53,055 bases of DNA from assembly GCA_008632985.1 (NCBI GenBank), contig QPGO01000238.1, positions 62,001 through 115,055 on the forward strand, in the 5' to 3' direction. The notes below the pieces were generated by a model. The model had not been told where the DNA came from, did not search any database, and saw only the letters and a program-made list of their open reading frames with translations. Numbering within the stretch: position 1 is the stretch's first letter; every line of letters starts with the position of its first letter. The position numbers and the translations under genes are program-made. This DNA comes from Psammoneis japonica. Its lineage: Eukaryota. Of the stretch, positions 7,340 through 53,055 are shown one piece after another.

Positions 7340-10150
7340 ATTGCTGTTGTTCACATGACATCTACCGGCATGTGAAAAAGTCAGTGCCTGCTTCCCAACC
7401 ATCATTTTTGAATTTCTCTTGCAGCAACAAAACCGTTCAGAATTTCACTGCCGGCACAGAAATGGGACGATGAGTTTTCTCACTCCCCGTTGTGGTTCCA
7501 ATGCTGAGCCCACACACCAAGTCTTGTTGCCCAGCTTTTCTTGCAGCACTGTCGGTCTCTTGTGCAAGGCCGCATGTGACCACAAGTCTCATCTTGTCAT
7601 TTTGTTGTTTGCTTGCAAACAGTTGTTGGACGTGTTGCCCCCATGTTCTCACATCGCTTTCTGTTGTCATGTTGTTCTTAGAAACATGACGATGAGTTGC
7701 TGTCATGACCCATCATTGTTCCAACAACACTTGTGCCAATGCCCATTGCTTGGCTTTTCTTGCTGTGCTGTCAGTCTCTTGTGTGAGGCCACCTGTGTGA
7801 CCACAACTCTTGTCATTTTGTTGTTTGCTCACAAGCATTGCCCCCATTTTCTCACCTTGCATTGCGCAGGGAAAAACTGCACTTCGCAATCAATCTTGCG
7901 CCACACAAGCAAGCCCTCTTTTTTTTTATTCACACTGCGACCATTCACTCAGCATTCATTGTTTCTCAGCTTTGACACCACAGATCGTGTTTTTCTCATT
8001 CTGTCACCAGACTGTCATGCCAGTTAGATCATTCTGCTGCTTCAGTGTCAAAAGAAGCTCAAGAAGCTTTCTTCTTCTTGTCTGGCATCTCCTTGTCCAT
8101 TCATCTTTGTCTTTGTTGTCAGGCCAATCATGAGTCAGCGTCTCCTGGGCCAAGGCCATGCTGTCTTCATCACTTGGCAGCTCATTGTCACATGCCTCAG
8201 GCATGGGGCAATTGTTGAAACACAGTGGAAAAGGTGAGTTTTTGACTTTTTGGAACATCTTCTCTCCACCTGACAGATGCCTCACAGAGACTTGGCACAC
8301 CTGACATTGCAGCGGCATGACAACATGGGATGTGCCACATTGATGCTGGCATCTGCAGTCACAAACGCAATGTGACACCATCCATGCAGAGCTTCTGGGA
8401 CCACACAAGAAGGTTGTCAAGAGATCTCTGGAGCAACTGATGCAGATCTTCACTTGATGAAGTGGCGCGGCCCAAATCTTGTGTGGAGCATTGGAGCCAG
8501 CCACCCAGGAGGAATGCCAAGCAATGACAAGGCCAAACCAAGTGGTGCAGCCTCCTGAACACACTCGGAAATGTCAGCAACACCAAGCAACATTGCCACC
8601 TGAACAAAACAAGAAACAAAGATCAGGTGCCATGACTTTGACAAGACAAGGGAGGGGTGCATGCCAGCTTGCCAACGTTGAGCCAGAGCTCTCCGTGGCC
8701 TGGCTGATGTGTTGTTTGGTTTTTGAGGCGAGAGGGTTTGGAGAGATGTGTCTTCAACAAATGGACACCGGCAACACACAAAATCTGAGTGCAATTCAAA
8801 CAGAGGGGGAAGAAACAATCCTCATTGATGGGGACAAGCATTGAAATTCAAATGGAGAGAAACGGACACCAAAAACAGAAGAGAGAGATTTGGGGTTTCC
8901 ACGCATCAGTTCTGGGTTTCTTGCAAGGTTTTTTGTGTGGTTCTGGGTTGGAAAATGGTGGCCCGACAACCTTGCTGGAGGCAAGAGATTTGTCAAGGCA
9001 GTCATCAATGTGAAGAACAAAGTTTTGAAAGTGAAGAAGGAGCACAGGAAGTCGGAAGACAAAAGGGACGGGAGGTTTGCCATCAGCCGAGGAGGGCAAG
9101 ATCTGGCAATGGTGTGTCAATTCTTGGGTCTGCAGTGCAGGCAAGTGCAAGGAAAGCGCGGAAAGATGGGCGGGCAGTGATGCCAAGTTGGTGGATGAAA
9201 CAGCAGACTCAAGGAGGGCAGCGAAAGGATGGAAGCTTGGGGGGAGAGTGGGGAGGAGCTGAAGGATCAAAGAGAAAGTGTGCAAAACAGGGTGGCAGTG
9301 AAAGGATTGTAAACGGAGGGAGACAGGGATCAGGCAGAGGACTTGGATGGAAGGTGATTGGTGGGAGAGTGACATCACACCAAGTGAGGGCTGGAAAGTC
9401 CATGTCGGAGCAAGACCAATGCAAGGGGGGAGAGATGAGAGTTGGGAAGGCTGGTTGACACCAACTTTGGGAGTCAAAGGTTGTTGGGACCTTGGGGCAT
9501 GTGATCATGTTGTTGCCATTGGCAGGACAGACTGAGGAGAGCAGGAAGGAGGTCATTTCAGCGGCAGTCCAGTGATGATCATTGAGTTGCAGATTGGCAT
9601 TGGAAGGCTGGTGGTGGTGTTTGCAGGAGTTGTCAGAAAGGTTGCATTTGCAGGAGTCATCAGAAGGGTCATCGAATGAACCCGGGTCGTCGAGGAAGAA
9701 CTCGTCCATGCCCCACCAAAGCAACAAAAAGCAGAGAGAACTGGCACTTGCCTGGCCAAAGATTGTGATTTAAGGAAACTGCTGGCTTTCAATCCAGCAG
9801 AGCAACACAGTCGGCAACCGGTGCAATTGCTGATTGCATTGACATGGAGGCGGAGAAGTGGAGCAAACATGGGGTCACGCACGATCAAAAGAGGGCTGTG
9901 TTGATGCGGTCATGCCTGATCGTGGAAGGGCCATTGGTGAGGTGATGCATGATCAAGAAGGAAGAAACAAGGGTGGAGTCATGCAGGCGAATGGTGTTTA
10001 AAGGGGCGGCAGAATTTGGAAGGGTGGAGAAAGAAACTCTGGAACGGTGGTGAGGAAGGTCACGGGATGGAGAAACTCAGGAGAGGCTGTCGGAGGAGGT
10101 GTCAGGAAGGGGTGGTGTGGGGCTGCATGTTGTTTAATGTTGGTTGAAGA
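7340..10150. mobile_element. Degenerate repeat-derived tract, TpA- and CpG-depleted; family not identifiable
   Basis: Very few TA or CG dinucleotides and a strong TG/CA excess; internal direct duplication 7534-7618 / 7753-7834 with CA/TG reciprocal differences; no recognisable protein. Confidence 0.55.
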
Positions 10151-10944
10151 AAGGAAGGAAAGCAAAGGGTTGGCACTTGAGGGTAGAGAGGATGAGAGAG
10201 AGAGGGTCGACGAAGCTGTGCCGAGGTTGGAAACGATGAGGAAAATGGTGAAAACCGAAACAACGCGAAGGATGCATCGCAAAGGAAATGGACCATTGTG
10301 CGATGGAGGATCAGGAGCCCATTTCGGGAGGTGTAGCGAAGTGCTACTTGACTGGGGAGTAAACCCCGTCGGCGTTGTCGTTAAGGCTTTCGTCATCGTC
10401 TCGCTGTTTCGCATCGCAAGAATGTTCCGTTCAGACAGTTGGGAGGTGTCTGTGGTGTGGTCGGGCGGAGTGCACCCGGCGCGCGGACAAAGGGGACATC
10501 GTACAGGTGGGGATAGGATTTATTTGTTGCGTTGCTTCCCCGTGTATCTTGAATTGGACTTGACCAACCAAAAACCTTATGGAGGGCCCTCTACTCGCTA
10601 GTATTACTGCAGGGCCTAGCTAGGGCCCTTAGATTCTGTTCAGACGTGCATGGTCATTGATTTGTTAAGTTGGAGGAGGATGCGCACTGCAGGGCCTAGT
10701 AGGTAGAGAGGGTCCTTAGATTCTGTGCTGACGTGAATGGTCGTTATTTTTTTTTGTTAGAAGTTACTCGTAGAGGGGAGGCCCATGCCTCGTCTTCCAA
10801 GCAAACTCGATCAAAGCAGGTGTCGGCCCAACTCATGACTACCGGATCAAGAAGTAAACAATTGATTCCTTTTTACGATTCATCCAGGCATTCGATTAGC
10901 CAAATCGATCATATCAAGCTGGTTCTGCTCATAAGGTAGACCTG

Positions 10945-12240: not shown

Positions 12241-13767
12241 CCCCTGCGTCAGTGGAGAGTATGGTTGGTGATGTCATGGTGATGTATGCTCACGTCATGG
12301 CATTTTTATATTTGTATTCATGTAAAAACAATTACATTTGTACACAAATGCTCATAGTTGCAGGAAAAATCCTGAACCACACTCTCCCCTAAATCTCGAG
12401 TCGCCTCGAAGGGACCCCACCAATTGACCAGTTTTGGTGCTCTGCAGCACCGCGAAAAAAGCACGCGTCCCAGCAACCTTGCCATGATGCTTTCAGAACA
12501 TTCGTCCCCTCCCACTTCCGACGAAGAAGCGACCAACGGTGTTGATGTCATTGACCTCACTGCAACAGGCAATGTTGTTGAAATTGCCGTCGCAAGCACA
12601 TTGCTTCCGAAATTGTGCCTCATTTATGAGATGGATTCTTGCAGACCTCATCCAAATGAAAGCTGGCAACACAGCCATGGTTGTGCTGCAGGGTGGCTTT
12701 GTGCATTGGTTTCCGGCACTGGTCGGGGCCAAGCGACAGCAGGGGAACTACGGCAAGGACAACACCGCGAGTGCAAACTCCAACAACATCTCGAACAAGC
12801 GATTTGCCACCACCTGTAGGTTGGACCAGCAGACAAGGTCTGGCGGAACATTTGCGAGAAGACTCAATCAAGCTGGACCCAACCGCGGTCTGCCAACCAC
12901 ATGGATGCTTGCCAAAGACATTGACAGATGCAGTGTCAAAAGATTGGGAGGCACAGGTCCAAAATGGGTTGTGGCCCGCCGTGGTGCAAGCAGTGGCATG
13001 CACTGTGGAGCATGAGTGAAAAAAAATGGCGTGAGACAGTGTAACGGCACTGTTGGCATTTTTGGTGCACAACAGCAATGCACGACACATGTGTCATTGC
13101 CTGATGGACCGGGCGCAGTGGGAAAGGCATCCGCCGGAATGTTGGTCATGGCGTTGGCATTGGCAAAAAAATCAGTGGCAGGCACTGCGCAGACACAGAC
13201 AAAAGGTGTTAGTTGGTGCCAAACAATTTCGTCAGTGTCGGGCCAATGAGAGACAAAGCAACATCATCACCTCTTGTGCCAGTCGGGTGAGGAAAGCTTC
13301 CGGGTGTGGCAGCTGCGGGAAAGGCAGAAGCGGCGATGTCATTGATGCCAGAAGCTTCGGCAGGTGGTGGAGCTGAAAAAACAGAGTGTCAGCAAATGAG
13401 GTGTCATTTCGGAAGCAACAGGGCTGCGACGGTAATTTCAACAACCTCACCTGTTGCAGTGGGGCAAACAGCATCAGTGCCGTTGGTCGCTTCTTCGTCA
13501 GAAGTGGGAGGGGACGAACATTCTGAAAGCATCATGGTGAGGTTGTTGTGCCGTGTGCTTTTTTTGCGGTAAAGAGATGGCTGAAAACTGGTCAATTGGT
13601 GGGGTCCCTTCGAGGCGGCTTGAGATTTGGGGGTGCCATGGGGTGCAGGAGATTGCTTGTGCACGCACATGCACTCGCCTCAATGCGAATGTTCTCTTCT
13701 CAACGCATGTGATGACATCATCACACATCACACACAACCACATCCCACAGTGCCACTGATGCAGGGG
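12241..13767. mobile_element. Foldback/TIR element with long inverted repeats enclosing a RecQ-like helicase fragment
   Basis: About 240-bp inverted repeats at 12387-12625 and 13395-13633; outer ends cccctgcgtcagtgg / ccactgatgcagggg; flanked by the direct repeat gctgtagatcgca at 12228-12240 and 13769-13781. Confidence 0.8.
12640..12900 (-). pseudogene. RecQ/SF2 helicase motif I-Ia fragment
   Basis: Translation LLVQPTGGGKSLVRDVVGVCTRGVVLAVVPLLSLGPDQ matches the RecQ Walker A (PTGGGKS) and motif Ia (VVxPLxSLxxDQ) pattern. Confidence 0.75.
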
Positions 13768-14539
13768 CGCTGTAGATCGCAGCACATGGTGTGCGCAGGG
13801 ATGCTGAGCTGACAACAACAACACATGCAGGCACGCATCTGGCATGCCTCTGCAGTCCACACTGTTTGTTTTCTGTTGTTTCTCCACAGAGTTGGTTCTC
13901 TGCATAAAAATGCTCAACATCACATGATGTGGAGGGGCGGTCGCTTTCATGACCAAACACTTGGCCAAACATCTTTGCTTCGCGCGCGCGCCAGCAACAT
14001 CGGGTGTGCCCTGTCAACTCCAATCTCCTTGGCACCCTTCTTTGTGCAAGTGGATCTGGAGGATTTGGCAGTGAGAGCCTGCCAAAATGCTGAAACAAGA
14101 TGTTAGCACCATGGCAGCTGACAATGTGCAGAGCGCAGACAAGGCAAGCAAGGGGCCGTGCAGCTGACTTGTGCCAAAGACGTGTTCCAGCTCTAGGTGG
14201 GGACCTCGCACTACTGAACTGTGACATAATTATTTTTTTATCATCCGTCGTATGTTTCGCACGTACATTTCTACGTGTTCTATTATAAAAAATTGTTCCA
14301 CACTGCCTGTTTTGCGAAGCCAAAGGCTTTCTGTTATCTGCACTTATGTCAATAAAAATGCGCTGGGTATATTCTTTAATGTCTAAAGAATATACCCGGG
14401 CATACTGTAAAGAATGTACTTCAAGTGTGGAGGAGGAGATACGTTCGCAAAATTGCCTCTTTTTCTGTTGGCGATCATTCATATATTCATTGCTTAATAA
14501 TTTTACTACGGAGCTCGCACGTAGAATTCTACGGGCCCA

Positions 14540-15660
14540 ATGTCACAAAAAGTCCCACCTAGGACTGGAACCCGTCCAAAGGGGTGCTGCCGGTGTTAAA
14601 GTGGGTGCCACTCAGCCTTCAAAGAAGCAATTTGTTGATGTTTTGCTTGATGATGAGCATGACAATTTGATTCTTTTGGAGCTGTTGACTGTCGCTGGTG
14701 CATGGCACTGCGTCATGATGATGTGAGCATGTGCTGGAGCCCACACCCCCCAGCAGCTGACACTGGGCACGCCCCCTTGGCATCTGCGCAAGTTGAATTG
14801 CTTGATTTCAAATTGAGGAGCAAGATCTCAGTTGGTGTGCACCAACCATGTGCATGTTTGCCCAAGGCCGGATTGAGCCCAGACAAGCCAGCAGTGTTGC
14901 TTGACGTGCTTTGTCACTCTTGAGCATTGACCCATCTGCGTGGGACCCACAGTTTGGACACTGAGCGCCTGGGATGCACAATTTTGAAACCAACCAGCTC
15001 TTTTGCAAAACTCTTGCTGACTCAAATGACAAGTCTGCAAAGTTTGCAAATGACTGTGCCCTGACTCAGATGCTGAGTGTGGCTCTTGACATGGGGGATC
15101 TGGTTGCTCATTGTGCGCACTTCTTGGTCATGGACCACGGTCACCCCACTTCTTGAAGGTGACATGCGCGGGGGATGGATTGCAGTGTTTGAGGTTCCTG
15201 TTGTGTCTTGGGGCAAAAACTCCCACACACTCACAGGATCGGCATCACATGAGTTGCAATGGAGAAATTGGGGGGTGCCCGCATGTCTTGTCACCTTTTC
15301 CTCTGTCACAAGTCACACAAAATGTGTGTTTTTGCGGTGCATGACACTGCTTGTTCTGTGAACTGTGAAGGCAAGGCACAGCAAGTCTCTTGTCTTGTTC
15401 ACACATGTTCTGATGTGATGCTTTCACAAATCACCGCATTGTCATTCTTGTTGGCAATGCGACGTTTAGCCCTGGGTTTGCGAGGGCCACTTCTGTTCGG
15501 AGGGCTGCAGCTCCACGGCCTTTGACGACTCCCTCACTGTTCCTCCGAAGAAACAAGCATGTTGTCTGTGTGACATGTTGCAATGCTGATTAGTGCCAAG
15601 TGAAGTCCACAACTGAACACTGAAACAGTCGGCTACTTTGGCATTTTCATTGAAAGTGCG
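14540..15660. mobile_element. TpA-depleted degenerate tract (13780-14200 is similar); origin unknown
   Basis: Near absence of TA with TG/CA excess, separated from the previous tract by a TA-rich island at about 14210-14535. Confidence 0.45.
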
Positions 15661-23037: not shown

Positions 23038-23419
23038 TTTTTCGGCAAATAACAGGGGCGAAACACTCTAGAAGATCTCAATCAGTTTTTGGCTTTCTAA
23101 CTTCTCGGTTTCATTGATACTTCTGTCTCACACCGGTATTGAGTATGCATCGCTCTGTCCTTTCATTGCTCATTGCGTTTTGGAGTTCTGAGTCAGAGCT
23201 TGCAGGTTTCAGGTGTCAGGGTCAGAGAGTTTCGCGTGCACGTGCGCGAAATTCGGACAAGTGGACGGACGGAATCGGGCTTCTGTCAATAAATAAATCA
23301 AGCAATCCAAATCATGCATTGTCGGTCGGAGAATTCAATTTCGCGCACCGAAAGCAAGTGTCATTCTCTCGACAACATTGGACGATGTTGACGACGCTGG
23401 GTGCGAAGATCTACGTCGT

Positions 23420-24880
23420 GCATCACCGCTTGAGAGGAGCCTGCATCAACACTGTGTTGCTCTGGTGTTGTCAGGAGCAGAGCTCTCAATCAGCCTGAAG
23501 CCCCCCCCCCCCCCCCCCGAGGCTCCAGGCTTGTTCGTCACTGTGTCTGCCTCACACTTGTGCTGAGCTCAAGTCAGTGAATCATGGCTCTGCTCTCTTG
23601 TTGGCTTTTTTTTTTTTAACTTGCCTTGTTGAAATTTGCCATCATGTGGAGTCAACTCTCGTGTTGCTCATTTGAAGGCAACTGGTCAATTGCAAGATGA
23701 AAAAAAGAAGGATTTTGCATGGGCATCACAACTCTGTGCTCGCATTTGCTGTCAGCCACACAACCCAGTTGTGCCGCACTTTTGTTTCATTGTCTCACTT
23801 GTTTTCTTTGATGCACCCATCTTCATTGCTCATGTGCAAGGAGGCACTTGAGTTGGCACGAACAACAATGGCTGACAGTTTGGTGTTGGTGTGGGTGCCA
23901 TTTTGTTGAGACCGAATTTCTTCATCATTGCAAAGCAGCACTGTGGCGTGCCCTGCACTTGGTTTGAATCAAACGAGCATCCAAAAATCATGCAAACAAC
24001 AACTCTGAACATGATGGCACACACATCTGTGTTGTCTCTCTGTGGCAAGTGATGCTCTTGTGAATGAGTTGAGCTGATGTGAAGTTGATGCAGCAATCAT
24101 TGACAATGCTCTCAATCAACTGACACACAATTTTGCCACAAAATGTTTTTCCCTGTGTTGTGGAGCACACCATGGTTTCACATTTCATTTGTGTGGTCAC
24201 TCTTGATTTTGTTTGGTGCATGAATGTCCGGCTCACATTGTGATTTGTGCAGCACTGGACCCTGCTGAATGAAAACAGAGAGAGTTGTTCTGCAGCAAGG
24301 CAGAACTCTTGTTTTTGTTGTGCTGGCAAGGCTGTCAGCTTCACAACTCACACTGGCCCCTGCTGAACAAAAAAAAGAGTGCTCAAGTTTTCAACCCATC
24401 TTTTGGTCAAGCAGATTGTGAATCAAAACAAGCACCCAAGAAACCATGCAAGCAACAACACATTGACCGCAGGTTGGTGTTGGCACATGCTGCACACAAT
24501 CAACTCCAGCCAGATGAAAGAGAGCACACCATTCAGTGCTCTGGAGAAACACACACATTGTTGGAAGTGCACCTTCCTGCCTTTGGCTTGTCCAAAGAGT
24601 GCTGAGATGCAAGGCACTCCATGGCTTTTGCATGTCATCATGTGTGCTTTGGTTGTGAGCGACCAGCTCGAGGCGGTCACGGGAGAATTGCTCGCCTCAG
24701 ATCCACACACAATTGCACTCCAAGAGTGTCCTTCTGCAGATTGGGCCTCACAAGCAGCAGCTTTGGTGGATGACTGTGTTTTGATTGGATTTGCAGCTTT
24801 GCATGCGGGTCATGTCGCATTGTTGGTCAAGAAGGAGCTCATTTTGGAACAAGAGCGTCGAGTTTGTCACGGTGACGAGG
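23420..24880. mobile_element. TpA/CpG-depleted tract beginning near a C18 run (23501-23518)
   Basis: Almost no TA over about 1.4 kb; TG/CA excess. Confidence 0.45.
24655..24860 (+). pseudogene. Endonuclease/exonuclease/phosphatase (EEP) domain fragment, hypermutated
   Basis: QLEAVTGELLASDPHTIALQECPSADW resembles the EEP 'PDIIxLQE' motif; downstream DDCVLIG and AGHVALL are consistent with Tyr-to-Cys/His changes. Confidence 0.55.
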
Positions 24881-25684
24881 TGATTTTGAACAAGACTATA
24901 ACCGAAATCAACAGTACTTGAGATTCGTCCCATGAGGTTCACATTCATATACATTTTGACAAGGGGTCTGCAGTGGCGGACATTACAAACACGAGTACAT
25001 TGATGGTGGAGCCTACCGGTTCTGAATCTTGTCGGCTTATTGGTACCTTTGCGATTGCCTCTTCTTCCATAATGGATCAAGTTATTAGGGTGTTTTGGAA
25101 TGAAATCAGCAAAAAGGGCTTTTCAAGAAGAACTACAAGATTATGAAAAAGAATCTTTGAAACGATACCAAAAGGAATCATCATCAAGTACTGAATCATC
25201 TGGTGGATAGGTTACGTACCTCCTATACGTAGATATCAGTTGTCTTTCGTGTAACAATGCTACAGGAGTATCTTACAGAAAAGATAGTGCGTAACGGAAA
25301 CCAACACAGAGGAGAGAACAATGCTTTCACCGACACGTCTCAGGGAGGCAAATAACAAACTACTTGATCTCACATGAGTCCCGAAAGTTGAACCGTCAGC
25401 CGTACGGTGTCATTGGAAAGTATTCATCGTGGAAAACTATCTGCAGTGCAGAAATATTAATGATCAGCCCTTTCTAACTTTCCAATAAGTCATCTGGGTG
25501 TTGGCGAGTCCTGCGCTCTCCCTCGATCCCTGCTAATCACGACATCACGACTTTTTATGTTTGTTGGTCTTATATTACTATCTTACATGTTCTAATCCCC
25601 CAGCTTGTCTACTGCATCAGCAAAATGGTAGGTATCTGAAGCTTCACAAGTCAAGCACTGCTCGAGCCTACGCTTTGCTGAAGC

Positions 25685-33816: not shown

Positions 33817-34032
33817 TCGCAGCCAAGACTCCAAGCCAAGCAAGGAGAGGACCTCCTTGACTGGACCGAGAGTCACCGCGCGAATGCAGGAGCGAAATGG
33901 GTTGAAGGACGGACGACGGACGAGACGAGCGGAAACGAGGCCAGCCCAAGGGATCCCCTCATTGTCTGGCAGGATGGGAGACACCATGGCACTGTCAGAG
34001 GCGTCTCCCAGGAGATGCCAACAATGAAAATC
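33817..34032 (+). repeat. Split direct repeat A1
   Basis: 216 bp, differs from A2 at 4 dinucleotide sites. Confidence 0.95.
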
Positions 34033-34961: not shown

Positions 34962-37243
34962 ATGAACCACGCCCACGCTGCTGCCATCAACCGCGGTGAG
35001 CTCTCCGCTGCAAAGCGGCACTCCGCCGCTTTGCCCTCCTCCACGGGTGCGATCGAGTCTGTCTCAACTGCTGTCCACCATGACACCCAGAAGGAGCTGC
35101 GAGACCATGTCTTCACGACCTCTGACCTTTTCTGCGCGGTCTGCAATCGCAAGATTGCGGTTGTGGCGAAACCTCGCCCCAGGCAGCATGCTGATGGGAA
35201 TCTAAAGTGGATCGGGAGCCTCTCGGATACGATCGGCGAGGTCATCCCGATGTTTGGCAGTTGGACTCGTTTCCAAGGCCATGCAACCACTCTAAACCCC
35301 CAGGGCGCTGTGGATGCTCATCACCTGCCCAAGTGCGAACTCAGCCCTGACGAGATTGACGGTCCCGTTGGCAATGACGGCAACAACGTGCCGGCGTCGA
35401 TGGGTCGTCTCCATTTTGGGAATCCTTCCGGACCGGCAGAGCGTCCCTCCATCGTCGCACTCCCGATGTTCCTGCCAATCCCAATGGGCGTCACCCTTCC
35501 TGTTGACTTTGACCCAGCAGATCCCCCAGCATCCCTTGCCACTGACTTTCCGCTCGGAGTGGTTTGGGCTCAGGGTGTGTCCTGGTTGCTTCAGCACAAC
35601 GCGTCTGTCTCTGTCACGGAAGGCGGCCCTGTGTTTGAGCAGAACGGTTTTGCCATTGTCGATGAGTTTGCAGGCCTCAAGATCCACAATCTCGACGACA
35701 ATGATGCACAGATGCTCCAACCTCTGACGGATTGGTGTGCACTAGTCAAGACCACGATGGACGCCTTTGCGGATGAGACCTGGAGGCAACTCGGTGGAGA
35801 AGATCCCGCGCAGACACCAGCTCCCGCCGCCCCAGCCCAAGGCACCAACGGACAGGTTCCGAACCACACCATCAACATCCCGCGCCAGGACTCAAAGAAG
35901 GAGTCAGACCAGAAGCTGAGGGCGTGCGACATTGGCCACCGCTGGTCACTCTGTGCGTTCCGAGTGACTGCTGGCACAGGTCCGGAGGACCCGCCCATGA
36001 TCATCGTGGGCGAGCTTGCGGACCAAGCGGTCAAGATTCTGCAGGACACGTTGGCTGCCAATGCAAACCGTGACCTTGCGGATCTTGTTAAGATGGCTGT
36101 TGTTGCATCAGCCCGTGGTGACAGTGGTCTAGATGCTGGGGTCGATTGCAAGTGCACCACAGTCAACAAGGCCACACGGACTGTTTCCGCGGCTTTAATG
36201 TGGTTGCGGAGCCCCCGCAGTGTGGCCAGGCTTCGCACCGTATGAAGCTGTCTGTCTTTCCCTTTCTTCCCCTGAAGACTGCATCATCTTCATTTGCTGG
36301 TCTCAAGGACGAAGGGAGGACACTCCATCGGGCACTTGCCAACGGCTCTGACTGCAAGATCCCCGATGACGCGAAGGCAAGCGACCTTTGCATCCAAGGA
36401 AGGATGGACACTGCCAGCGATCTGTGGTCAGCACTTTGCAACTTTCGCTGTGTCCTTGGATGTTGGATCAAGGACTTCGACAATGCGGAGCTGTGGAAGT
36501 CCCTGGATGTGTGCGCAAAGGTTCTCTGGTCGCACCCGGGCCGTGCGTGGCTCAAGAATCTCGAGGACCCGAAACCAGTCGTCGCTGGCATCCTAGATGA
36601 TTTCCAGACTGTTGTCAAAGTCTACTTTGAGATCGGAGACTCTCCCTTGTACCGTCAGGCGGTAGAAACCGAGCGTCCGCTGAGCTGCCAGACAGCAAAG
36701 GACGCTCGCACTCTGGTCAAGTCCCTCATTGCGGACCTCAACACCGCGATCACGCGGGGCAAGCCTCTGGCCTTTGCAGAGGCATCTACATTGGCCCTTG
36801 TCCCCCCAGGCAACTCTGTGTTTCCCTCTGCTGCTAGCGGAACGAAGGACAATGCGACCAAGTCTGGTCAACCTCCGAATGAGAAGCCGCGCACAGGGGA
36901 AACAGATGAGAAAACCACCGAGCTCTGCAAAGCGATGGGTGTGCTCAATTTTTCGGGCACGAAGTGGCTCCCGACCAGCCCCGTTTTCTACAAGAAGCGA
37001 GGATCAGATCAGGAGGAACGTGTCTGCATGTGCTTTTGTACTGAGGGGCACTTCTGCAAGTTCCCCAACTGCCCGAAGCCCCACCCATCGTCTCTCTCCA
37101 AGATTCCGAGTGAAAAGAGGGATGCCTTTTGCCAATTTGTCAAAGACACCCCTGGACTCGATTTTGTCCCTGGCAAGGGCCCAGACGGTGCATCCCAATC
37201 AGGTTCAAAATTTTCTAGTCTATGCACCACACCCTGTTGCTAA
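34962..37243 (+). pseudogene. Gag-like ORF1 of the YR retrotransposon (frameshift near 36175), C-terminal Cys/His finger
   Basis: ORFs 34890-36245 and 36146-37243 overlap in different frames; C-terminal CMCFCTEGHFCKFPNCPKPH is CCCH-like; position upstream of RT; the first 451-aa ORF has no Tyr. Confidence 0.7.
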
Positions 37244-37323
37244 TGCAGTGTTGTCCAAAACTGTTTTGTTTTTACTCTTGATTAGTCTGCATTATCCCGG
37301 ATAGGTCCGTTCGTCTCATCGCA

Positions 37324-40212
37324 ATGGATGTCGACGACGACAGCGATCAGGAGTGCGAGGTGATCGATGCAGAAAAAGAAGAGACCGGAATGAGCATCGA
37401 TGATGCCATCCCAGCTGTTGACGCTGCACTTGCCACGTCGGTGAAAGAGCCGCACCCGAGCCTGCGCCGAGGTGCGGTCACGCCGCAGCCTCCCGTCGAC
37501 GAGAATGAGCTGATTGAGCCATTCCCTACCTTCTCCATGGTCCATAAGAAGAAAGGGACCAATCTGATTCCTACAATCAACAACGGCTTCAACAAGAAGG
37601 CACGTGAGCACTTTGCCAATGCGGAACTGTCACCGGGCGTGCGTGCCAAACTGGACCAAAAATTCGGCAAGGAAAGCTTGAATCAATGTTTCTTGTTGGA
37701 AGCGTGTTTGCGTCATGTGTTGTCACCGCTGTTGAAATCCGGACACCTTTTGCCACCGGTTGATTGCGTGAGTGACTTGTCTGCCCAAATCGCCTTTGGG
37801 GGCGATTGGGAGAACTTCGGAGCGGCCATCCCGGAAGCAGCCGAGTTCATGAGTCTGGTCCAGGAACATGGCGACATCGACTTTAATCCTCTCCAAGGCT
37901 ACCCCAAGGGATGGCAAAAGGAGACAACGGTCAATGCGGATAGAGCCGCGATGACAACTGCCGCATTGTTGCATTTTGATGGCGACCCAGCAAACCTGGT
38001 TCGCTGGGTTGGCGGACCGCACGTCGGTGAACACAGATGCACGCAGAAAATGCTCCGCTTTCTACAAGGTCGTGTGCCCGACGAGACAATGGCACACGTT
38101 CGCCGCATCTTCCAAGACGGGGCGCCAGCGAAATGCAACACTGCTTTCTCTGAAGCAAACTTCCAAGCAGCTCTCAAGTGCGGAAACCACAAGGCCGTTG
38201 ACGCTGCACCTGACAAAACATTGGCGGCAGTCGTCAAGGACAATCGCAAGGGTTTCACGCTGCTTTTTGACCAGCGTCTGGTGCCATGCTTGCTGAACTG
38301 CCATCTCACTCCTCAGGGGATGGTGGACCTTGACAAGAAATGCAAGAGTCCGCGCCCCATCTTCGACAGTGCGATGCGAGCGACTCCGGGCGGTGCAGCA
38401 ATCAACGACACGTTGGACCTCAAGCACGAACCGCCGATCACGTTCCCATCAGCGGAAATGGACTTTATGGTGTGGACATGGAACATGAGAATGTCCTGCC
38501 CACATGAGGAGATCTGCCTTGGCAATGATGATGTGAGTGGCGCTTTCCGCAACATGAAGCACCACCCGAACCTTGTCGGGATGCATGCCAGCGTCCAGTG
38601 TGGACCAGGCGTCCTACAGACGGGTTGCACCTTCGGCGACAAGACCAACCCAAGCAACTGGGACGCCATTGCCAACGCAAGACAACATCTTGCTCAACAC
38701 TTCTGGCTGGTGCCCAACATGGTGGAGCTCGCCCAGCAGTGTCTCCCGTCGACATCATTCGCGGAACCTCCAACAGCTGAAGAGGTGGCGTCATTCTGTC
38801 CTGCGGAAGCAGACGCTGTCAATCCGGGCATGTTCCTAGACGGCAACCGTCTCCCACCAACATGCAAGCACCACATCGATGACAACTTCTACGGAGACAC
38901 ACGTGACTTGATGAAAAGAACAGTCGCTGTGAGCGCCCTGGCCGTGTGCATTGTGTTGGGCTTCCCACGCGATGAAACTCCGGATTTCCCAAGCAAAGAG
39001 AAACTGGACACACTGTGCTCGCATCTCCGACGAGCCCTGGGAAGGCACTTCAACTCAAGAGCACTGTCGGTGGGAATGCTCCCATGCAAACGAGAACAGT
39101 TCCTTGAAACTTTGCAAGAATGGTGTGACAAACAACGGCACACACTGTTGGATGCAGCGAACCTGAATGGTCAATGTGAATTCCATGCGCGGTGTTGTCC
39201 ATGGGCTCGGCCGAATTTTTTTGCACTCCAGAATTCCGTGCGGCGGGCTGTGGTCGTCCAATGCGCCATTGTCAAACGAATCATGGAGCGACAAAATTTC
39301 AAATTAAATTTTGAAACTCAACTGCCGAGTCATCTCAGGAATGGGCTGCCGAGCTCACTCGCGCGCACACAAGCCCAGCTCCTCTGTGAGCTGAAGATCG
39401 AGATCCCGATGACATCCGATGTCATTGATGTGATGAAGGATGCAGCATCCTACATCGAATCGACGCCAGACCCATGGACAGCACCGATTGGATGTGTCAT
39501 GCTGCGAGTGCCACATTGCCAAGCAATTGGAGACGCCAGTGACGCAGGCGGAGGAGCCCACTGCGCGGAACTCAAATTTTGGTTCGCATTTCTTTGGGGA
39601 CCAAAAATGGCGAAAGGGCTCCGGCTGAGGAAGGCCTCCGACCCAGAGTGTGTCCATGTCAACACAGCAGAGTTTGTTGTCATCACACTCAAGCTGGCAG
39701 CTGCAATTGTCTGCATGGAGACTATGACCCGAGAACGGGCCCATGAGTTCTTCCGGAACGGCGTCGTCCCGCTGCACCTGGTCGTCAGGAGTCGTTCAGA
39801 CAACATGGTGTCGGTCAACCGGTCCAACAAAGCAACGTCAAAGTCGCCACAGGGGCAACGATTTGTTTGGGTCTTCTGCGAATTGCTCCGCCGTGCTCGT
39901 GCCAACTTCAACGGTGATCACATCTTTGGCGACGAAAATTTTGTTGCCGACGACATCTCACGACCTTCTGTTTTTGCCTTGATCTCGCATCGCACCCATT
40001 CTGAACAGCTGTTTCGGAAGTGTCCCTTTCTGAAGACCTGGGACTGTTTCCAGCCGAGTCAAGAGCTGCTGCAGCTCCTCTCCTCACAGCTGTCTACCAA
40101 GCACAGAATGGCACCCCAGATCCCAAACGACTTGGGACAGCTCGTTCCCGCAGAATCCATTTCCTCTGCTTTTACAAGAGTGCGAAGTGGCACCTGGGAG
40201 ATCCGGAAATGA
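37324..40212 (+). pseudogene. Reverse transcriptase-RNase H ORF of the YR retrotransposon; open frame but YxDD mutated
   Basis: RT motifs DDVSGAFR, TFGDKTNPSNW and HIDD (expected YxDD); RNase H motifs GDAS, HVNTAEF, SDN and HIFGDENFVADDISR. Confidence 0.9.
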
Positions 40213-41261
40213 CTGTGATTGGCAAGGACCCAAAGTGCTGCCAACTGGTGCCAGCTGTGCATGCGTTGCATCTAGCTAGCGGCTCCACTCTCTACTGCAA
40301 GAACATCTCCTCAGGTGCCATCAAGGAATGCGTCCACGACGTGTCAACGTTCGTGTCTCTGTTTGGTTCCACGCATCGGGACGTCCGTAAAGACAACAGC
40401 GTGGACACCAAGATGGGGTGGATCCTCAGGAGAGCATTTGATGAACTCCAACGGTGCGAGAAAGTCCTGGAACGGCGCGAGTCATGCACGTTGCTGATGC
40501 AGCAACGAGCGACGTTGACAGCAGACAGCATGCGAGAAACCGACCCGGACGCGATCGAGGTGGTCCTCGCTGACTGGTTTGAGATTGGGCCAATGGCCGG
40601 CTTGCGAAGCATCGAATGGGCTCAATCCAATGAGCACTCAGACCTGGAGAACCCAAGGCTGAACATCTTCGAGGAGACCTGCGTGTTCTGCCTCGACGAC
40701 ATCCGCTGCGAGACAAAAGACAAGCACCGACACACCGGAGCGGATTGTCTCATCCCCAAGCAAGAGGATGTCGAAAGCATGTGCGTCATGTTCCGAGCTC
40801 AGAAGAACATGCACAATGGCGAGGAACGCCAGTTTGCTGTGAATCTTGATGGCAAGCACGACTTGGCAAAGCAGATGCTTCGCGTCATCCGATGTTTCGT
40901 GCAGGTCCGTGGCAAGGACGACAAGATCTGCCCCCTTGCTGTCTACTTCGATCCAAAGGAGGACAAGTGCCATCTCGTCACGTCCAAGAAAATCGAGACC
41001 CACATGTGCCGAATTGCCGCGGAAGTTTGCCACCTCGACCCGGTGAAAGATGAGAAAGCTCTCAGCAAATGGTCGGCTCACTCCCTCCGTGTTGGAGCCT
41101 GCAATGTCCTTCACGAGATGAATTTTAGTGGCGAGCAGATTAAATGGCTGCTCAGATGGCGATCTGATGCCTTTGTGGCTTGTCTCTGCAACTGCCTGGG
41201 TCTTTCCCAGGCCCATTGTCGAGCTCTCGATAAGGCGGCACCCATGCCGTTTTTCGATTAA
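40209..41261 (+). pseudogene. Tyrosine recombinase of the retroelement; catalytic Tyr replaced by Cys
   Basis: GLRSIE (catalytic R), FRAQKN (K), HSLRVGA (HxxR), LRWRSDAFVACL where Y is expected at C (TGT, 41181-41183). ATG at 40209 overlaps the RT stop (ATGA). Confidence 0.92.
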
Positions 41262-41529
41262 TCCATTTGTGCGGATTCAATGTGTCCCCTTTGTGTGTGT
41301 CCTCTCTGCGTGACATAAAATCGCACACTGTTGTCCTGTTGCACCCGAAATTTCAATTTTGAAATTCGAAATTTGATCCTGGCAACGGGACTGTACACAT
41401 GCATTCAGGAGGAACATTCGTCCCTCCATCGTGTCTGAAGAAAATGGATTTTTTTTTTCCGGTTGGCTCTGCCTCCGATGACATGGGCGCGTTCGCAATG
41501 CTTTCAGCATTCCGCATCGGCAGCATGGT

Positions 41530-42209
41530 CTGTGCACAGTGAAAAAGGGAACCAATTGCTTGGCACTGGCGATTCCAAGCCCAGTCCCACATCCTAATTG
41601 CTTCACCCACTGGCGACTATTTTCATCGTGGCAACAACATGAGTCTACACACGGATGTGAGCACTGCGCATGTTGTGGACGACACCAATGTGTTGCATCG
41701 ACAGACAAGAGACGCTTCCACTGTGCCATGTCATCGGAGTGCAGACACGGATTCTCGCAGCCAAGACTCTGAGCCAAGCAAGGAGAGGACCTCCTTGACT
41801 GGACCGAGAGTCACCGCGCGAATGTAGGAGCGAAATGGGTTGAAGGACGGACGACGGACGAGACGAGCGGAAACGAGGCCAGCCCAAGGGATCCCCTCAT
41901 TGTCTGGCAGGATGGGAGACACCATGGCACTGTCGGAGGCGTCTCCCAGGAGATGCCAACGATGAAAATCAAAAACCCACCACTCCCTCCCCTGTGCACA
42001 GTGAAAAAGGGAACCAATTGCTTGGCACTGGCAACTCCAAGCCTGGTCCCATGTCCCAATTGCTTCACCCACTAGCGACCATTTTCATCGTGGCAACAAC
42101 ATGAGTCCACACACGGACATGAGTGCCACGTACATTGTGGACGACACCAATGTGTTGCATCGACAGACAAGAGACGCTTCCACTGTGCCATGTCATCGGA
42201 GTGCAGACA
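41530..42209 (+). repeat. 3' repeat block B1 (41530-41747), A2 (41755-41970), B2 (41992-42209)
   Basis: Direct alignment of B1 with B2 and of A2 with A1. Confidence 0.95.
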
Positions 42210-43413
42210 GCCGAGGCGGAGGCAGGGAATCCGTGGGATTCCACCATGATGACACCACCAACCAACCCAGAAACTGCAACCTGAGGGCATTGGGGGTCTT
42301 TGGGGGTCCCCAGGTGACACTTTGGGGACTGTGGTTGAGCATTGCAAGGCTGTCCTGGCTTGTGCAGTTGTCGCCCAGTCACGTCATCTCACAAAGGAAG
42401 AGACTTGAATCCCAGCTCAGCAGCAAAAGCAGGTGACACTTTAAGAGCCATGGGCAAAGAGCATTGCAAAGTGCCCCTCTTGAACAGCTGCAGCCCTCAG
42501 CCACTTTTTCCCGCAAAGGATGAGACTTGAACATCCCAACTCCACAGAGTGAAAGGACACCGTGATGGGGCGACCAACCAACTCAACAACTGCAGCCTGA
42601 AGGCATTGGGCTGAGCATGAAAAAAGTGAAGTCTGCAGATTTTTGAGAGAAAAGGCTCTCCCAACACAGAGATTCCAGCCACCCCCGCCACTGCACCACA
42701 CTTTGCACTGATTTGTGTTCCAGTTCCTGTCAATCCATTCTGCTGGACAGCCAGATCTCACACAAAAATTGTGCCACTGAGCACGGGTGTGATTTCCATC
42801 ATCTTTCCCAAAACAAACTTGCTGGGAGTGTTGTGGTTCCAGCCTTTGTTCTGTCTTGAGTTGGGACCAAGATGGAAGGCGGGAAATGGGGGGCAAGCCG
42901 TCCTTTCTTCACGCGACATTGCCGTTTTCTACTTTTACAGCAGCGCAACAAAAAATCCGACCGCCGTTCACCACAAACAGATCCGACAGCCTCACACAAG
43001 AGGTCTGTTGCCCCTGCATACTGACCGCTGTTTAAATGTTTTCGCATCATTGCTTTTACCGGTACACAATGTCTCACATCTGTTATGAGGCGTTTTGTGC
43101 GCGGCCGTCAAGGCTCCGCATCTCAATCTGTTGCGACACGGCATCACGCCCATGAGGCATCTGAATGACTCCAGCTCTTGAATTTTTGTTTGAAGACGCG
43201 ACCAATCGCGCTAATACATCTAATGCTCTATCCGCGATGCTTTCAATCATGGATCGAGCGAACGATCGACACTCGACGAGCGGCGAATCAATTCAAGCAC
43301 GAACGATCCGAGCTGTTGCACAACACGCTTCTCACTCTGAACAAGACACATGCACGAATGAGTGACAGCTGAACGTCAGTGCGCTGCTCAATCCTAACAA
43401 CACCAAAGCAGCC

Positions 43414-50538: not shown

Positions 50539-50619
50539 CCGTACCTATGTTGCATGTTTGTTGACTTCTACCCGCTTTTTGGAACACAAAAAAAGTCTTC
50601 TCTTTCGTGCAAAGATAGC

Positions 50620-51850
50620 GAGGCAGGTTCACTTTCGAGCAAGGGCAGCGAGGCAGGATCACGGTCTCCCGAAGACCAGAGCCTGTCACGTAGCTTCTTC
50701 ATGAGGACCTCAACTGTCAGATCATGCCATCCACACAGGTCCAAGGTCCAACACGCCTTGGTCAATTTCTCTGTCTTTGTCATTTTCCCATTCAACTCCA
50801 TGTCCTAATGACAAGCACTTTGCAAGCTCTGACAGCTCCCTCAGATGTTCGCCGTTAAGCCCATCCTGCAAAAGTAGCAAAAATGGAGTTCTCGCACCAT
50901 CACCTTCTGCCTCAACGGGTGCAGTTCCAGCCAGGTTGAGAAAATGACAGCAATCTCTGGGCACCACTTTCATTTGCACCCCCTTCAATGAGTCTGCATG
51001 GACAACACTTGAGATCTGTCCTGAAGCGGCAGTTGAGTGACATGTGCCTTGGTGCATTGATGTGCCATGAACAAGGCCAAGTAGATTGCAATCATCATCC
51101 ATCAGGGGACAACCACTGCACCCAGGCACAGAATGAGTGACCACTGTCAATCACGTTTCCTGTGTTTCGATGACCTGCCCTTTTGTGTGAATGCTTCCGT
51201 GCCCAATCACCAGTCTTCCAACCACACCTCTGCACCTTTCGAGCTTTAGTTTCTGACGGGAAAAAGATCCAGAATTCTCAAGCCTTTTCTTTGTGTCACT
51301 GCACAGCTGGGCGCAGGCAATGTCATTCTTGCCACTTGAGACATGGTCTTCTGGCAAGTTCAAGTTTGTCATTTGAAAGGGTGACGCGTTGCCAGCAGGA
51401 TCTTGGCATTTTTCGTCTGCTCGCCAACGCAGTTCAAACACAGGTGGTGAGCACCCTGAAGCTGCATGTGCAGCAACACAACGGGATTGCTTTGCTGCTT
51501 CATCATTTGTTGCTTGGAGGTTGATGAGTTCCACAAGGACATGCGCTGCAGACACAAGGTGGACAAACTTGCCAACGGCCATGACGAGGCCATGGCCAAT
51601 GTTTGCCCTGTTTCCATCATCATCGCCAATGTCTCCATTGTTTTTGCTGTGTCCACAAGGACTTGTTTGATTGTTGGCGTAAACTTGGATGCATTTTTGT
51701 CTGTGCTTGTCCCAAGAAGCTTGTTCTCAAGCTCTTCAAACTTGCTGTCAAGATTTTTTAAAGGCTTTTCCAACCTCCTCTTGTGTGATTCGGCGCAATC
51801 TGGTTTCAAGCTCTTGTTCTTGGGCTGTCATTTTCTACCTGCCACAATGG
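50620..51850 (-). pseudogene. Trypsin-like serine peptidase with N-terminal coiled coil, hypermutated and disrupted
   Basis: Triad motifs in order across broken frames: LVSAAHVL (His), NDIACA (Asp), PGCSGCPLMDDDCNLLGLVHG (Ser); lies in a TpA-depleted tract. Confidence 0.65.
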
Positions 51851-53055
51851 TTCAGCTCGGGTCATGGTGGAAGCACAATGTGGGAGCATGACGGCAAAGA
51901 ACCATGGTTGGTTTTTGGCTGTTTCAACTTTCGACGGCTTTTGAATTCTTTTTTGTGCGGTGATGTGGCTTCAACTTGTGCGACTAAAATCTCAATCTGG
52001 AGCTTGATCAGCCTCGAACATTTCCCTCCACAACTCCTTTCTACAGCACATCAAAACTGCCTTGGCATTTGGAGCACCTTCTGTGACCGTTCCTTGCATG
52101 CACTCCCAATGGTGAGCTCGTTTGACCACAAAGCAGCAGCTTCAAATTGGTGCTCCGTTTTCTGTGGGTGGAGCACACGCCATCACTTTCCAGTGGCCGC
52201 ATGGCTCTCCTGTCAACAGCAGCAGATGGAGAGAACACTCGGCCACAAAGCAATCTCTTGTCAGCTCAACTGGGCTGACAATGACAGTCTTTTGCCTTTT
52301 CATTGACTGTTTTTTTTAAATGCTTCTGGTGCAGATCAATTGCCCATGAGTTGTGGTGCTGTCTCAGCACCATGGCTGAAGCAGCTCTTTTCGCAGAGCC
52401 AAAATTGATTTTTGTGCAGAGAGATCACAGCTCTGAAACCAAGCAAGCTCCAATGTCATTGCTGCTGAGCTGCTGCCATTGACCTTTGTGTGCTCCCTTC
52501 TGTCTCTCAGACAAAGCTGTTGTGACGTCAATGGGGGTCATTCCAATGGCTGCTTTTCACAATGGGGGGTCTTCCATTTGTGCTCAGAGTGACAAGAACT
52601 GTCTGAAGAAGATGCCTTGGTCTGCAAGACAAACAAGCAGAGTGAGGTGTTTCAATCTGTCCTTTCTGCAGAGACCACAGTGGCAGTGAGTGCAGCATGC
52701 CCCCCATCTGAAGTTGTGGTGGTGGAAGGGCAAACTGTTTTTTTCCAAGCACCCAAATTGCCCTTCTTGCACTTTCTGAAACCCCGTTGACATGCCAGTG
52801 CAGCCTTTCCATGCTCCAACATGGACCAAATTGAAAGAATGGTGCTTTGCATGACATCGCCAAGGTGGAGGTCACTGTTGTCTTTTGTTGACTTAAAACT
52901 TCTTACAATCACTCTCTGCCAGAGCACAGAACCATGGAAGCACCCTGGGCTCTAGAACCTGGACTGCTCTGTGGACAATTGCCCCTTCTGCATGAGGTGC
53001 AGGTGGTGTGAGAGATGCCCTTGGAGCCTCGTTGGCAGCTCTGCCTGATGAATGT
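51850..53055. mobile_element. TpA/CpG-depleted degenerate tract continuing off the window
   Basis: Few TA or CG dinucleotides; TG/CA excess. Confidence 0.45.

Follow-up and report, generated by a model that had tools for sequence, protein, structure and literature searches.

The 53,055-bp stretch of DNA analyzed here (the window; positions 62,001 to 115,055 of contig QPGO01000238.1 in the Psammoneis japonica assembly GCA_008632985.1) carries host genes for a multi-exon acetyl-CoA carboxylase, an AAA ATPase, an EamA transporter, a Spherulin-4 family protein, and an AMP-binding enzyme, together with seven tracts from which the dinucleotide TpA (TA) has been almost erased (Table 1). One of these, tract 6, contains a retroelement of the Ngaro type with a predicted tyrosine recombinase gene. 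We propose, at a probability of roughly 0.8, that the tracts are decaying, silenced mobile DNA that has been hypermutated from TpA to TpG and CpA and has, in addition, undergone a separate decay of CpG.

An earlier note on this DNA, made from its letters, had described eight tracts nearly free of TA and rich in TG and CA, and counting bears this out. Its eight tracts (22,933 bp) hold 124 TA, an observed/expected ratio (obs/exp) of 0.09, with CG at 0.56, CA at 1.58, and TG at 1.59, whereas the 30,122 bp outside them hold 1,099 TA (0.53), with CG at 0.98 and CA and TG at 1.19 each. AA, which the note had said survives in the tracts, indeed does so (1.21 inside and 1.18 outside). In sliding windows, long stretches have 0 to 3 TA per 500 bp, with CA and TG at 1.5 to 2.1 times expectation. 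We set the tract borders with a two-state hidden Markov model (HMM) on TA positions, which gave seven tracts covering 24,203 of the 53,055 bp (46%) and containing 140 TA, compared to 1,084 in the host segments. These borders are nearly the same as those first drawn, with the earlier 29850-30900 and 31800-42900 fused into one tract; they are sharp where tracts meet host genes, and two TA-normal islands (14194-14597 and 29483-29821) interrupt the tracts. The longest run without TA spans 8025-9310 (1,285 bp; given 0.0365 TA per base in the host, P ~4e-21), and a second TA-free run, 23617-24897 in tract 4, measures 1,280 bp. CA and TG are nearly equal in number in every tract (2,250 and 2,294 in total), indicating that both strands are affected. 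CpG is depleted too, with per-tract obs/exp values of 0.31-0.72, and measured against host obs/exp the mass balance of the tracts is -586 TA and -641 CG, +557 CA and +574 TG.

The adjoining host genes are normal in TA and in tyrosine (Tyr), as had been reported. Host exons contain 2.4-3.5% Tyr, while the long frames of the 34.8-41.3 kb tract contain 0-1.0%, with Cys and His raised. The acetyl-CoA carboxylase gene, with exons of 2.4, 1.8, and 1.4 kb, is unaffected (TA obs/exp 0.49 in segment 1-7363; Tyr within the same 2.4-3.5%). As a separate observation, the host segments are themselves fairly low in TA (obs/exp 0.49-0.58, with small intergenic islands up to 0.9), and host CTAG and TTAA are scarce, with 36 and 43 counts in 30 kb.

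Erasure of TAA and TAG stop codons accounts for the long open frames in the tracts (28226-29161 on the minus strand, 7359-8024 and 34803-41258 on the plus strand); in Markov simulations of an 11-kb tract, the longest frame averaged 289 aa. None of the 194 stop-to-stop tract frames of at least 70 aa reached a curated Pfam cutoff, and the seven matches below cutoff were at chance level (E 0.002-0.009). Frames of tracts 1 and 7 had no Pfam family, and the tract 1 frame at 7359-8024 had no relative in viral contigs. The 312-aa minus-strand frame at 28226-29161, in tract 5, had 0 homologues among 1.84 billion representative proteins, and we regard it as a by-product of the lack of TAA and TAG. The earlier description of the tracts as including recognizable transposons and gene relics therefore stands for one tract, in which homologues and a fold search identify an element, but not for the frames as a whole, none of which carries a Pfam family.

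The element in tract 6 occupies 33817-42209 (~8.4 kb) and is laid out as A1-ORFs-B1A2B2, with three open reading frames (ORFs) between its split direct repeats. The two frames of the broken ORF1 match the N- and C-terminal halves of the ~800-aa ORF1 of relatives (E 4e-36 and 8e-35) and contain 0% and 0.8% Tyr; a word-indexed search with the N-terminal half gave no match, its homology being seen only against the ORF1 of relatives, and the two are too divergent for polarization at Tyr. ORF2, at 976 aa, is far longer than the longest frame (482 aa) in 200 Markov simulations of the tract. Judged only from weak leads and its place within the element, ORF2 would be a reverse transcriptase (RT)/RNase H-like protein: its atlas neighbors at 0.96 include families in which RVT_1 (52% and 10% of members) and RVT_3 (11%) are found, and its motifs presumably resemble those of RT and RNase H. 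RT Pfam models matched 0 of 33 ORF2 family members, an ORF2 sequence profile searched against the PDB returned only a chance match to dihydrofolate reductase (E 0.2), and no ORF2 relatives were found in viral contigs.

ORF3, judged by its modeled structure, is a tyrosine recombinase. The model (pLDDT 81.2) matched Cre, Tn1549 Int, IntI, XerH, and lambda Int in Foldseek, with 28 matches at E<=0.001, all of them tyrosine recombinases among the matches listed. The ORF3 family profile aligns to the H-x-x-R...Y region of Cre (E 0.7), and Phage_integrase was matched weakly by 14 of 52 family members. At the catalytic position, Tyr393, which is invariant in 51 homologues, the window copy has Cys, encoded by TGT. 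With ORF1 frameshifted and the catalytic Tyr now Cys, this copy of the element is dead.

Intact relatives of the element follow a canonical plan, with an ORF1 of ~800 aa, an ORF2 of ~980 aa, an ORF3 of ~405 aa, and split direct repeats that are 98-100% identical, and two metagenome contigs, L062 and L065, carry the same A1-[ORFs]-B1A2B2 layout. An A1-[ORF1, ORF2, ORF3]-B1A2B2 arrangement with a recombinase ORF downstream of ORF2 is how Ngaro elements are defined (PMC8547959, PMC4157794). As ORF2 and ORF3 reach no Pfam cutoff for RT or integrase, we regard the family as a divergent Ngaro lineage. These two contigs and a third, L061, have three intact ORFs and split direct repeats that are 98-100% identical; this looks like a divergent Ngaro-like family, invisible to Pfam, that has recently been active in environmental eukaryotes. 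A further locus, L076, was set aside as an architecture reference because it is a degenerate copy, and L051-L078 were used instead. The closest ORF3 homologue (P0078, 49% identity) is itself poor in Tyr (1.1%, with 4.4% His and 2.5% Cys) and could stem from a further erased copy, one belonging to a separate data set.

The homologues of ORF2 and ORF3 allowed us to polarize the changes. Tyr makes up 2.4-4.0% of residues in homologues of ORF2 and 1.1-4.7% in those of ORF3, compared to 0.3% and 1.0% in the window copy. Across both proteins, 22 alignment columns are conserved for Tyr (Tyr in at least 70% of homologues), and at these the window copy has Tyr in 3, Cys (TGY) in 10, and His (CAY) in 2, the rest being Phe (3), Leu (2), Ile (1), and Trp (1). 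All three retained codons are TAC preceded by C. In ORF2 alone, 2 of 17 such columns are kept and 7 are now Cys. Conserved Arg has also been lost, to Cys in 4 of 17 columns of ORF3 and, among 32 columns of ORF2, to Gln three times, to Cys once, and to His once; since conserved Arg became Cys, Gln, or His, CpG was ancestral at those sites. The outgroup check that the earlier note had called for thus places TA at the Tyr columns, with CG ancestral as well at some Arg sites, and the alignments point to a direction of change from TA to TG or CA, with TA (and CG) as the ancestral state.

The split direct repeats provide a second line of evidence from within the element. Under the replication model for such elements, these repeats are expected to be identical at insertion. 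Between A1 and A2 there are 6 differences, all of them transitions that exchange TA, CG, TG, and CA with one another, and between B1 and B2 there are 19 transitions, 18 of them exchanges of this kind, so that over both pairs all 25 differences are transitions and 24 fall into the class. They include CA/TG seven times, TA/CA five times, TA/TG once, and CG/CA four times. The arms of the foldback element in tract 2 show such exchanges at 21 of 42 differences, compared to 15 of 98 in four control repeat pairs from TA-normal host sequence. The changes arose in place, after insertion.

These findings bear on the possibility that foreign DNA arrived already poor in TA and that only CpG decay took place here. 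CpG decay is real and accounts for part of the CA/TG excess, and most tracts have no outgroup that could speak against such an origin. For the Ngaro-type element, however, it is already contradicted: the relatives have ordinary TA (median Rho(TpA) 0.61 over 80 metagenomic loci with ORF2 relatives) and ordinary Tyr, the window copy has lost conserved and catalytic Tyr codons, and the split repeats have since insertion come to differ by TA/CA or TA/TG at 6 pairs and by CA/TG at 7. We consider an arrival in the TA-poor state extremely unlikely. Equally slight is the chance that element transcripts underwent RNA-level A-to-I editing by an ADAR- or ADAT-like enzyme and were fixed by reverse transcription, which would apply to retroelements only. 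The best-characterized tract is a retroelement, and ADARs favor U 5' of the edited A (bioRxiv 10.64898/2026.01.13.699255), yet the two strands are hit equally, the split direct repeats diverged in place, and the changes extend to the foldback element and to non-coding flanks. Moreover, in Bigelowiella natans, the subject of the same preprint, a viral insert that is single-copy and transcriptionally silent acquires mutations in situ.

The environmental relatives carry the same signature in some copies. Against the median Rho(TpA) of the 80 loci, three are TpA-depleted (L039 at 0.16, L058 at 0.24, and L031 at 0.29), and the window element stands at 0.14. L058 and L031 are the same element, and L058 was dropped. 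These loci belong to a sub-family of 23 loci with ~78-91% DNA identity, of which 22 copies were used, with the majority state of the other copies taken as the ancestor of each. In L039, A>G/T>C changes occurred at 36 of 90 TpA bases (0.40) and at 38 of 612 other A/T (0.062), and in L031 at 52 of 170 (0.31) and 64 of 1246 (0.051); in the 20 other copies, the rates were 0.00-0.18 at TpA bases and 0.008-0.096 elsewhere. Among 123 ancestral TA in L039 and L031, 40 were kept, 51 became TG, 29 CA, 1 CG, and 2 TT, so that 80 of the 83 changed sites went to TG or CA. As judged from these alignments, the process strikes single copies, affecting some but not all members of the environmental family. Together with the Tyr-to-Cys/His replacements and the split-repeat differences, these polarized copies agree with the direction and context proposed in the earlier note, TpA to TpG or CpA by A-to-G on either strand. 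The window element has ~67% DNA identity to the sub-family copies over 451 nt and is a different lineage, probably in a different host.

The polarized copies also show that the process prefers 5'-T-A-Y-3'. In L039 and L031, TAT was hit at 19 of 36 sites (0.53) and TAC at 44 of 91 (0.48), compared to 10 of 54 for TAA (0.19) and 9 of 65 for TAG (0.14); the odds ratio for a pyrimidine over a purine 3' of the A is 5.2 (p 1.9e-8), and sibling copies are flat at 0.06-0.09. Tract/host ratios in the window run in the same order, with TAT at 0.05, TAC at 0.12, TAA at 0.25, and TAG at 0.26. ATAT occurs 0 times in the tracts and 73 times outside, and the best survivors are CTAG and TTAA. Because the coding-strand A of a TAY codon always has a 3' pyrimidine, Tyr has become Cys five times more often than His.

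Loss of CpG is a second process. The earlier note had overlooked it, although CpG decay to TpG and CpA supplies about half of the TG/CA excess in the tracts. In the sub-family, CpG transitions run at 0.03-0.22 in nearly all copies, compared to 0.02-0.08 at other C/G, and the hypermutated L039 and L031 show no excess (0.05-0.11). Over 21 copies the TpA and CpG rates give a Spearman coefficient of 0.28 (p 0.22), and no TCG specificity was found in the CpG decay of the sub-family copies. Given the lack of an excess in the hypermutated copies, of TCG specificity, and of a correlation, we conclude that CpG decay is independent of the TpA process; it would most simply be deamination of 5-methylcytosine in methylated silent DNA. 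Since CpG decay is neither specific for TCG nor coupled to the TpA rate, we rejected a dual A/C deamination in the style of ADAT2 as the source of both losses. In the window, loss of TA is more advanced than that of CG: the young Ngaro-type element has TA at obs/exp 0.1-0.3 and CG at 0.7-1.0, while its flanks and the other tracts have TA at 0.02-0.10 and CG at 0.1-0.6.

An artefact of base calling would require a modified base in the TpA of silent DNA to be read as G (or as C on the other strand) and fixed by polishing. Such miscalls would yield TG or CA and never CG, would leave ORF2 and ORF3 as open frames, and would imitate the replacement of Tyr by Cys or His. One public sample contains this DNA. 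Contigs of run X1 reproduce the tracts at 7321-9483 (depth 69, 1 differing letter in 2,163 nt), 14550-17988 (depth 61, 8 differing letters), and 24054-24911 (depth 67.5, 0 differing letters in 858 nt), much as they do host-gene segments at 5501-7049, 10370-12268, and 18586-20037 (depth 57-61; 0, 0, and 2 differing letters). Strand-specific miscalls would produce half-depth bubbles at each site, but these k-mer contigs are unbroken and at full, single-copy depth, which makes an artefact unlikely, even though the library type of X1 is not on record and the run may itself have supplied the assembly. Furthermore, the element has truly decayed, with a frameshifted ORF1 and CpG decay at Arg codons; the signature is present in some metagenome-assembled copies and absent from siblings in the same contig series; and the B. 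natans case was measured on Illumina reads as new mutations (bioRxiv 10.64898/2026.01.13.699255). We regard the chance of an artefact as very small.

The earlier note had also called the process repeat-restricted, and this is not supported. A miniature inverted-repeat element at 14179-14576 retains TA at obs/exp 0.96, even though the bin containing it (14172-14838) has a summed X1 depth of 66,415 over a baseline of ~60, summed depth not being the same as copy number; 28+8 X1 contigs continue unlike the window beyond 14573-14576, its right end. This element either postdates the erasure or is immune to it. Conversely, tract stretches at 7502-8835 and 14839-15505 have depths of 67-81, approximately single-copy at >=85% likeness, a threshold below which mutated copies may fall. 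Confinement of the process to non-host DNA beside unaffected genes was upheld, with sharp HMM borders and one tract identified as a Ngaro-type element. That element was inserted within older erased DNA: CpG obs/exp is 0.07-0.3 at 32.0-33.5 and 42.0-42.9 kb and 0.7-1.0 within the element, so tract 6 is a composite of older, strongly CpG-poor flanks around a younger insertion. Regional targeting, through chromatin, would fit this arrangement. As for expression, no RNA data set containing this DNA was listed, but one contig of a further run, X2, skips 95 nt (16684-16778) within the AAA ATPase gene, for which reason we treat X2 as behaving like RNA and the skipped segment as an intron; 7502-10169, 14839-15505, and 23510-24176 are without X2 cover, from which we draw no conclusion about silence.

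Collectively, these data fit a model in which the tracts are dead mobile DNA, comprising one Ngaro-type retroelement, one foldback element, and otherwise unrecognizable remains, and in which a mutation process turns the A:T of TpA into G:C on either strand. The process prefers T-A-Y and approaches saturation while sparing adjoining host genes and at least one small high-depth element. Its targeting may depend on chromatin or foreignness, not on copy number, and it may serve in defense. Error-prone repair synthesis of the Pol eta type recruited to heterochromatin, which the earlier note had offered as one candidate, does not fit. Pol eta makes A-to-G changes at WA motifs, but AA is untouched in the tracts, and on this ground we rejected it; in hypermutated copies, the rate of change is ~6-fold lower at A/T outside TpA than at TpA, and the process is near saturation. 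Its probability is negligible.

The other candidate of the earlier note, a TadA/ADAT-like deaminase, is also proposed in the B. natans preprint; here its involvement is something we infer. At a little under even odds among mechanisms, the agent would be a DNA-acting adenine deaminase with the TadA/ADAT fold. The main rival is a thymine route, a different chemistry with the same outcome. Oxidized thymine occasionally mispairs with G, and a TET/JBP-type dioxygenase that marked the T of TpA in silent mobile DNA as 5-hydroxymethyluracil (5hmU) or 5-formyluracil would produce T-to-C changes, turning TA into CA on the modified strand and TG on the other, never CG, just as adenine deamination would; the T-A-Y preference can equally be read as R-T-A on the opposite strand. 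Transposable elements of dinoflagellates are enriched in 5hmU, which silences them, and earlier studies saw T replaced preferentially in TA and TC (PMC11572971). Against this, no signal in the TC context was seen, although no search was aimed at it, near-saturation would demand a very high lesion load, and the authors of the B. natans preprint favor deamination; the content of the window bears on neither enzyme. Sequence alone cannot separate adenine from thymine chemistry, and we consider the thymine route improbable. Broader still, and in our view doubtful, is the idea that a natural chromatin- or RNA-guided DNA adenine deaminase with a 5'-T-A-Y-3' preference, probably derived from TadA/ADAT, acts in genome defense not just in one chlorarachniophyte but in several unrelated microbial eukaryotes, among them the intron-poor host of this window and the hosts of L039 and L031, inactivating retroelements copy by copy alongside, and independently of, cytosine methylation.

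Several points weigh against our interpretation. Outgroup polarization was possible for only one of the seven tracts; the others rest on composition and on CA/TG and TA/CA differences between paralogous contigs. Replacement of Tyr by Cys does not by itself separate mutation from systematic miscalling, and X1 belongs to the same sample series as the assembly and may be its source data, the library type not being on record. The high survival ratio of CTAG and TTAA is confounded because the host itself is poor in both, and a length threshold could explain why small elements escape. Targeting by chromatin or foreignness, like the role in defense, is a step that we infer. No deaminase or DNA methyltransferase is encoded in the 53,055-bp window, in agreement with the earlier note's statement that it held no candidate enzyme. 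The precedent is a single preprint that describes itself as not conclusive (bioRxiv 10.64898/2026.01.13.699255), and the one ADAT2 whose action on DNA has been tested, that of amphioxus, favors 5'-GAA-3' and hairpin loops (PMC10354150).

The remaining features of the window are collected in Table 1. The foldback element in tract 2 has a summed depth of 427-920 over the baseline of ~60, and tract 3 probably continues tract 2, the miniature element having split the two. The TA-normal island at 29483-29821 consists of perfect palindromes nested in one another (29609-29626 / 29628-29645 is one example), and tract 6 contains a tandem array (30915-31292) of six copies of a 64-65-nt unit, with 64-88% identity to the reference copy. 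Immediately upstream of tract 1, the TA-normal segment 6835-7501, with a palindrome at 7135-7223 (35-nt arms) and a summed depth of 1,684, is probably another small multi-copy element. In host sequence, an in-frame 42/21-nt tandem array lies within a coiled-coil protein gene (26343-26699), and a 48-nt array (44589-44749) adjoins the Spherulin-4 family gene. An Rfam scan of the window found no RNA genes.

Table 1. Features of the window; tract borders are those of the HMM on TA positions, and TA and CG values are obs/exp unless given as counts (TIR, terminal inverted repeat)
Feature	Position	Strand	Remarks
Host acetyl-CoA carboxylase gene	258..6644	-	Pfam Carboxyl_trans, ACC_central, Biotin_lipoyl, CPSase_L_D2
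TA-erased tract 1	7364..10333		8 TA (0.04); CG 0.37; no recognizable coding content
Foldback element in tract 2	~12386-13633		Arms 12386-12625 / 13394-13633, 82-94% complementary
TA-erased tract 2	12391..14193		10 TA (0.10); holds the foldback/inverted-repeat element
Miniature inverted-repeat element	14179..14576		~398 bp; 23-nt TIRs 14179-14201 / 14554-14576; TA 0.96
TA-erased tract 3	14598..15590		1 TA (0.02); CG 0.36
TA-erased tract 4	23145..24896		4 TA (0.03); CG 0.46
TA-erased tract 5	28345..29482		2 TA (0.03); CG 0.31
Small TA-normal island	29483..29821		339 bp; TA 0.92; CpG 1.3
TA-erased tract 6, composite	29822..42929		100 TA (0.14)
Split direct repeat A1	33817..34035	+	97% identical to A2
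ORF1, broken	34803..37240	+	Frames 34803-36242 (480 aa) and 36122-37240 (373 aa)
ORF2, still open	37282..40209	+	976 aa; 43 homologues at ~43% identity; Tyr 0.3%
ORF3, still open; predicted tyrosine recombinase	40005..41258	+	418 aa; 97 homologues; Tyr 1.0%
Split direct repeat B1	41530..41747	+	91% identical to B2
Split direct repeat A2	41755..41973	+	Pairs with A1
Split direct repeat B2	41992..42209	+	Pairs with B1
TA-erased tract 7	50617..53055		15 TA (0.10); CG 0.33; continues past the window end

If the host truly differs from B. natans, it would be a second organism with this process and, taken with the metagenomic copies, a first sign of wide occurrence. Ever since adenine base editors had to be made by laboratory evolution, a natural DNA adenine deaminase has been sought; the T-A-Y motif, the retroelement as a target, and tracts so close to saturation are handles for finding the enzyme. 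There are practical consequences as well. Dead elements without TAA or TAG keep frames of up to 976 aa that gene callers would annotate as genes, and the process hides elements from Pfam, inflating Cys and His at the expense of Tyr. Joint loss of TA and CG with gain of TG and CA would make a simple genome-wide screen for the process.

Among known mobile elements, the one in tract 6 shares its split-direct-repeat layout, its ORF order, and a predicted tyrosine recombinase in ORF3 with the Ngaro superfamily (DIRS order), although at ~8.4 kb it is longer than the ~6-kb Cafeteria elements. Among mutational systems, the likeness to the repeat-induced point mutation (RIP) of Neurospora and other fungi lies in dinucleotide-specific transitions in mobile or duplicated DNA, in the destruction of coding capacity, and in sharply bounded islands. 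RIP uses cytosine methyltransferase-like enzymes. The direction is the opposite, as the earlier note had recognized: RIP turns CpA into TpA, whereas the tracts lose TpA and gain CA and TG. RIP also creates stop codons where the process here removes them, leaving long frames in place, and it is triggered by duplication, for which the window holds no evidence.

APOBEC3 and AID likewise bring about a host-driven, context-specific, deamination-type hypermutation of foreign nucleic acid (bioRxiv 10.64898/2026.01.13.699255). They edit C:G, in minus-strand cDNA during reverse transcription, while the changes described here affect A:T on both strands of resident chromosomal DNA. The target A of TadA and ADAT enzymes follows U or T, an invariant feature of their substrates, as it does in TpA here. 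We know of no natural enzyme with TpA-specific activity on DNA. Engineered TadA variants acting on DNA show YAC and YAY>YAR hierarchies (PMC12528748), the latter resembling the T-A-Y > T-A-R order in the window, while natural EcTadA has no activity on DNA (PMC10354150).

The closest counterpart is the process in B. natans. A full-text literature search for processes that are TpA-specific, or that change A:T to G:C in repeats or foreign DNA, with subscription journals outside its coverage, returned a single description (bioRxiv 10.64898/2026.01.13.699255), so the earlier note's statement that it knew of no such system no longer stands. In mutation-accumulation lines of B. natans, where the rate of new mutations was directly measured as raised roughly 1000-fold, two integrated viral regions received 231 of the 302 new single-nucleotide mutations, and 230 of these 231 were A>G/T>C, all at TpA, as measured on Illumina reads (bioRxiv 10.64898/2026.01.13.699255). 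According to the same preprint, 11 of 15 lines were affected, 124 TpA-poor, CpA+TpG-rich clusters occur genome-wide, and predicted genes poor in TpA show an enrichment of DDE and RT domains; its authors propose an ADAT2-like protein as the mutator and favor deamination. The likeness extends to an exclusive TpA-to-TpG/CpA change on both strands, to foreign or mobile DNA beside normal host sequence, to clusters of the same composition, to the sparing of some lineages there and of some copies in the metagenomic sub-family here, and to suspicion of an adenine deaminase.

The two cases also differ. The B. natans targets are giant-virus or virophage inserts, whereas the best-defined target here is a tyrosine-recombinase retroelement accompanied by unrecognizable relics, and erasure is near saturation here (Rho(TpA) 0.02-0.14), compared to 0.45 in the B. 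natans nucleocytoplasmic large DNA virus (NCLDV) region. Here CpG decay accompanies the loss of TpA and a preference for a 3' pyrimidine is resolved, while the main text of the preprint gives no 3' context and contains "CpG" 0 times. The hosts differ in structure and composition as well: B. natans has 8 introns per gene with a mean of 182 bp (PMC13746701), compared to window exons of up to 2.4 kb; TA makes up 3.65% of host dinucleotides here and 6.0% in B. natans; and 30 of 53 1-kb windows, host-gene windows included, have Rho(TpA) <=0.43 here, compared to 5% by definition in B. natans. The retrotransposon target, the T-A-Y preference, the independence from CpG decay, the signature in some metagenomic copies, and probably a different host are new here. 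Taken together, these comparisons indicate that the process in the window is the same kind as the TpA hypermutation of B. natans, and that its intron-poor host is probably a second organism in which that process operates.

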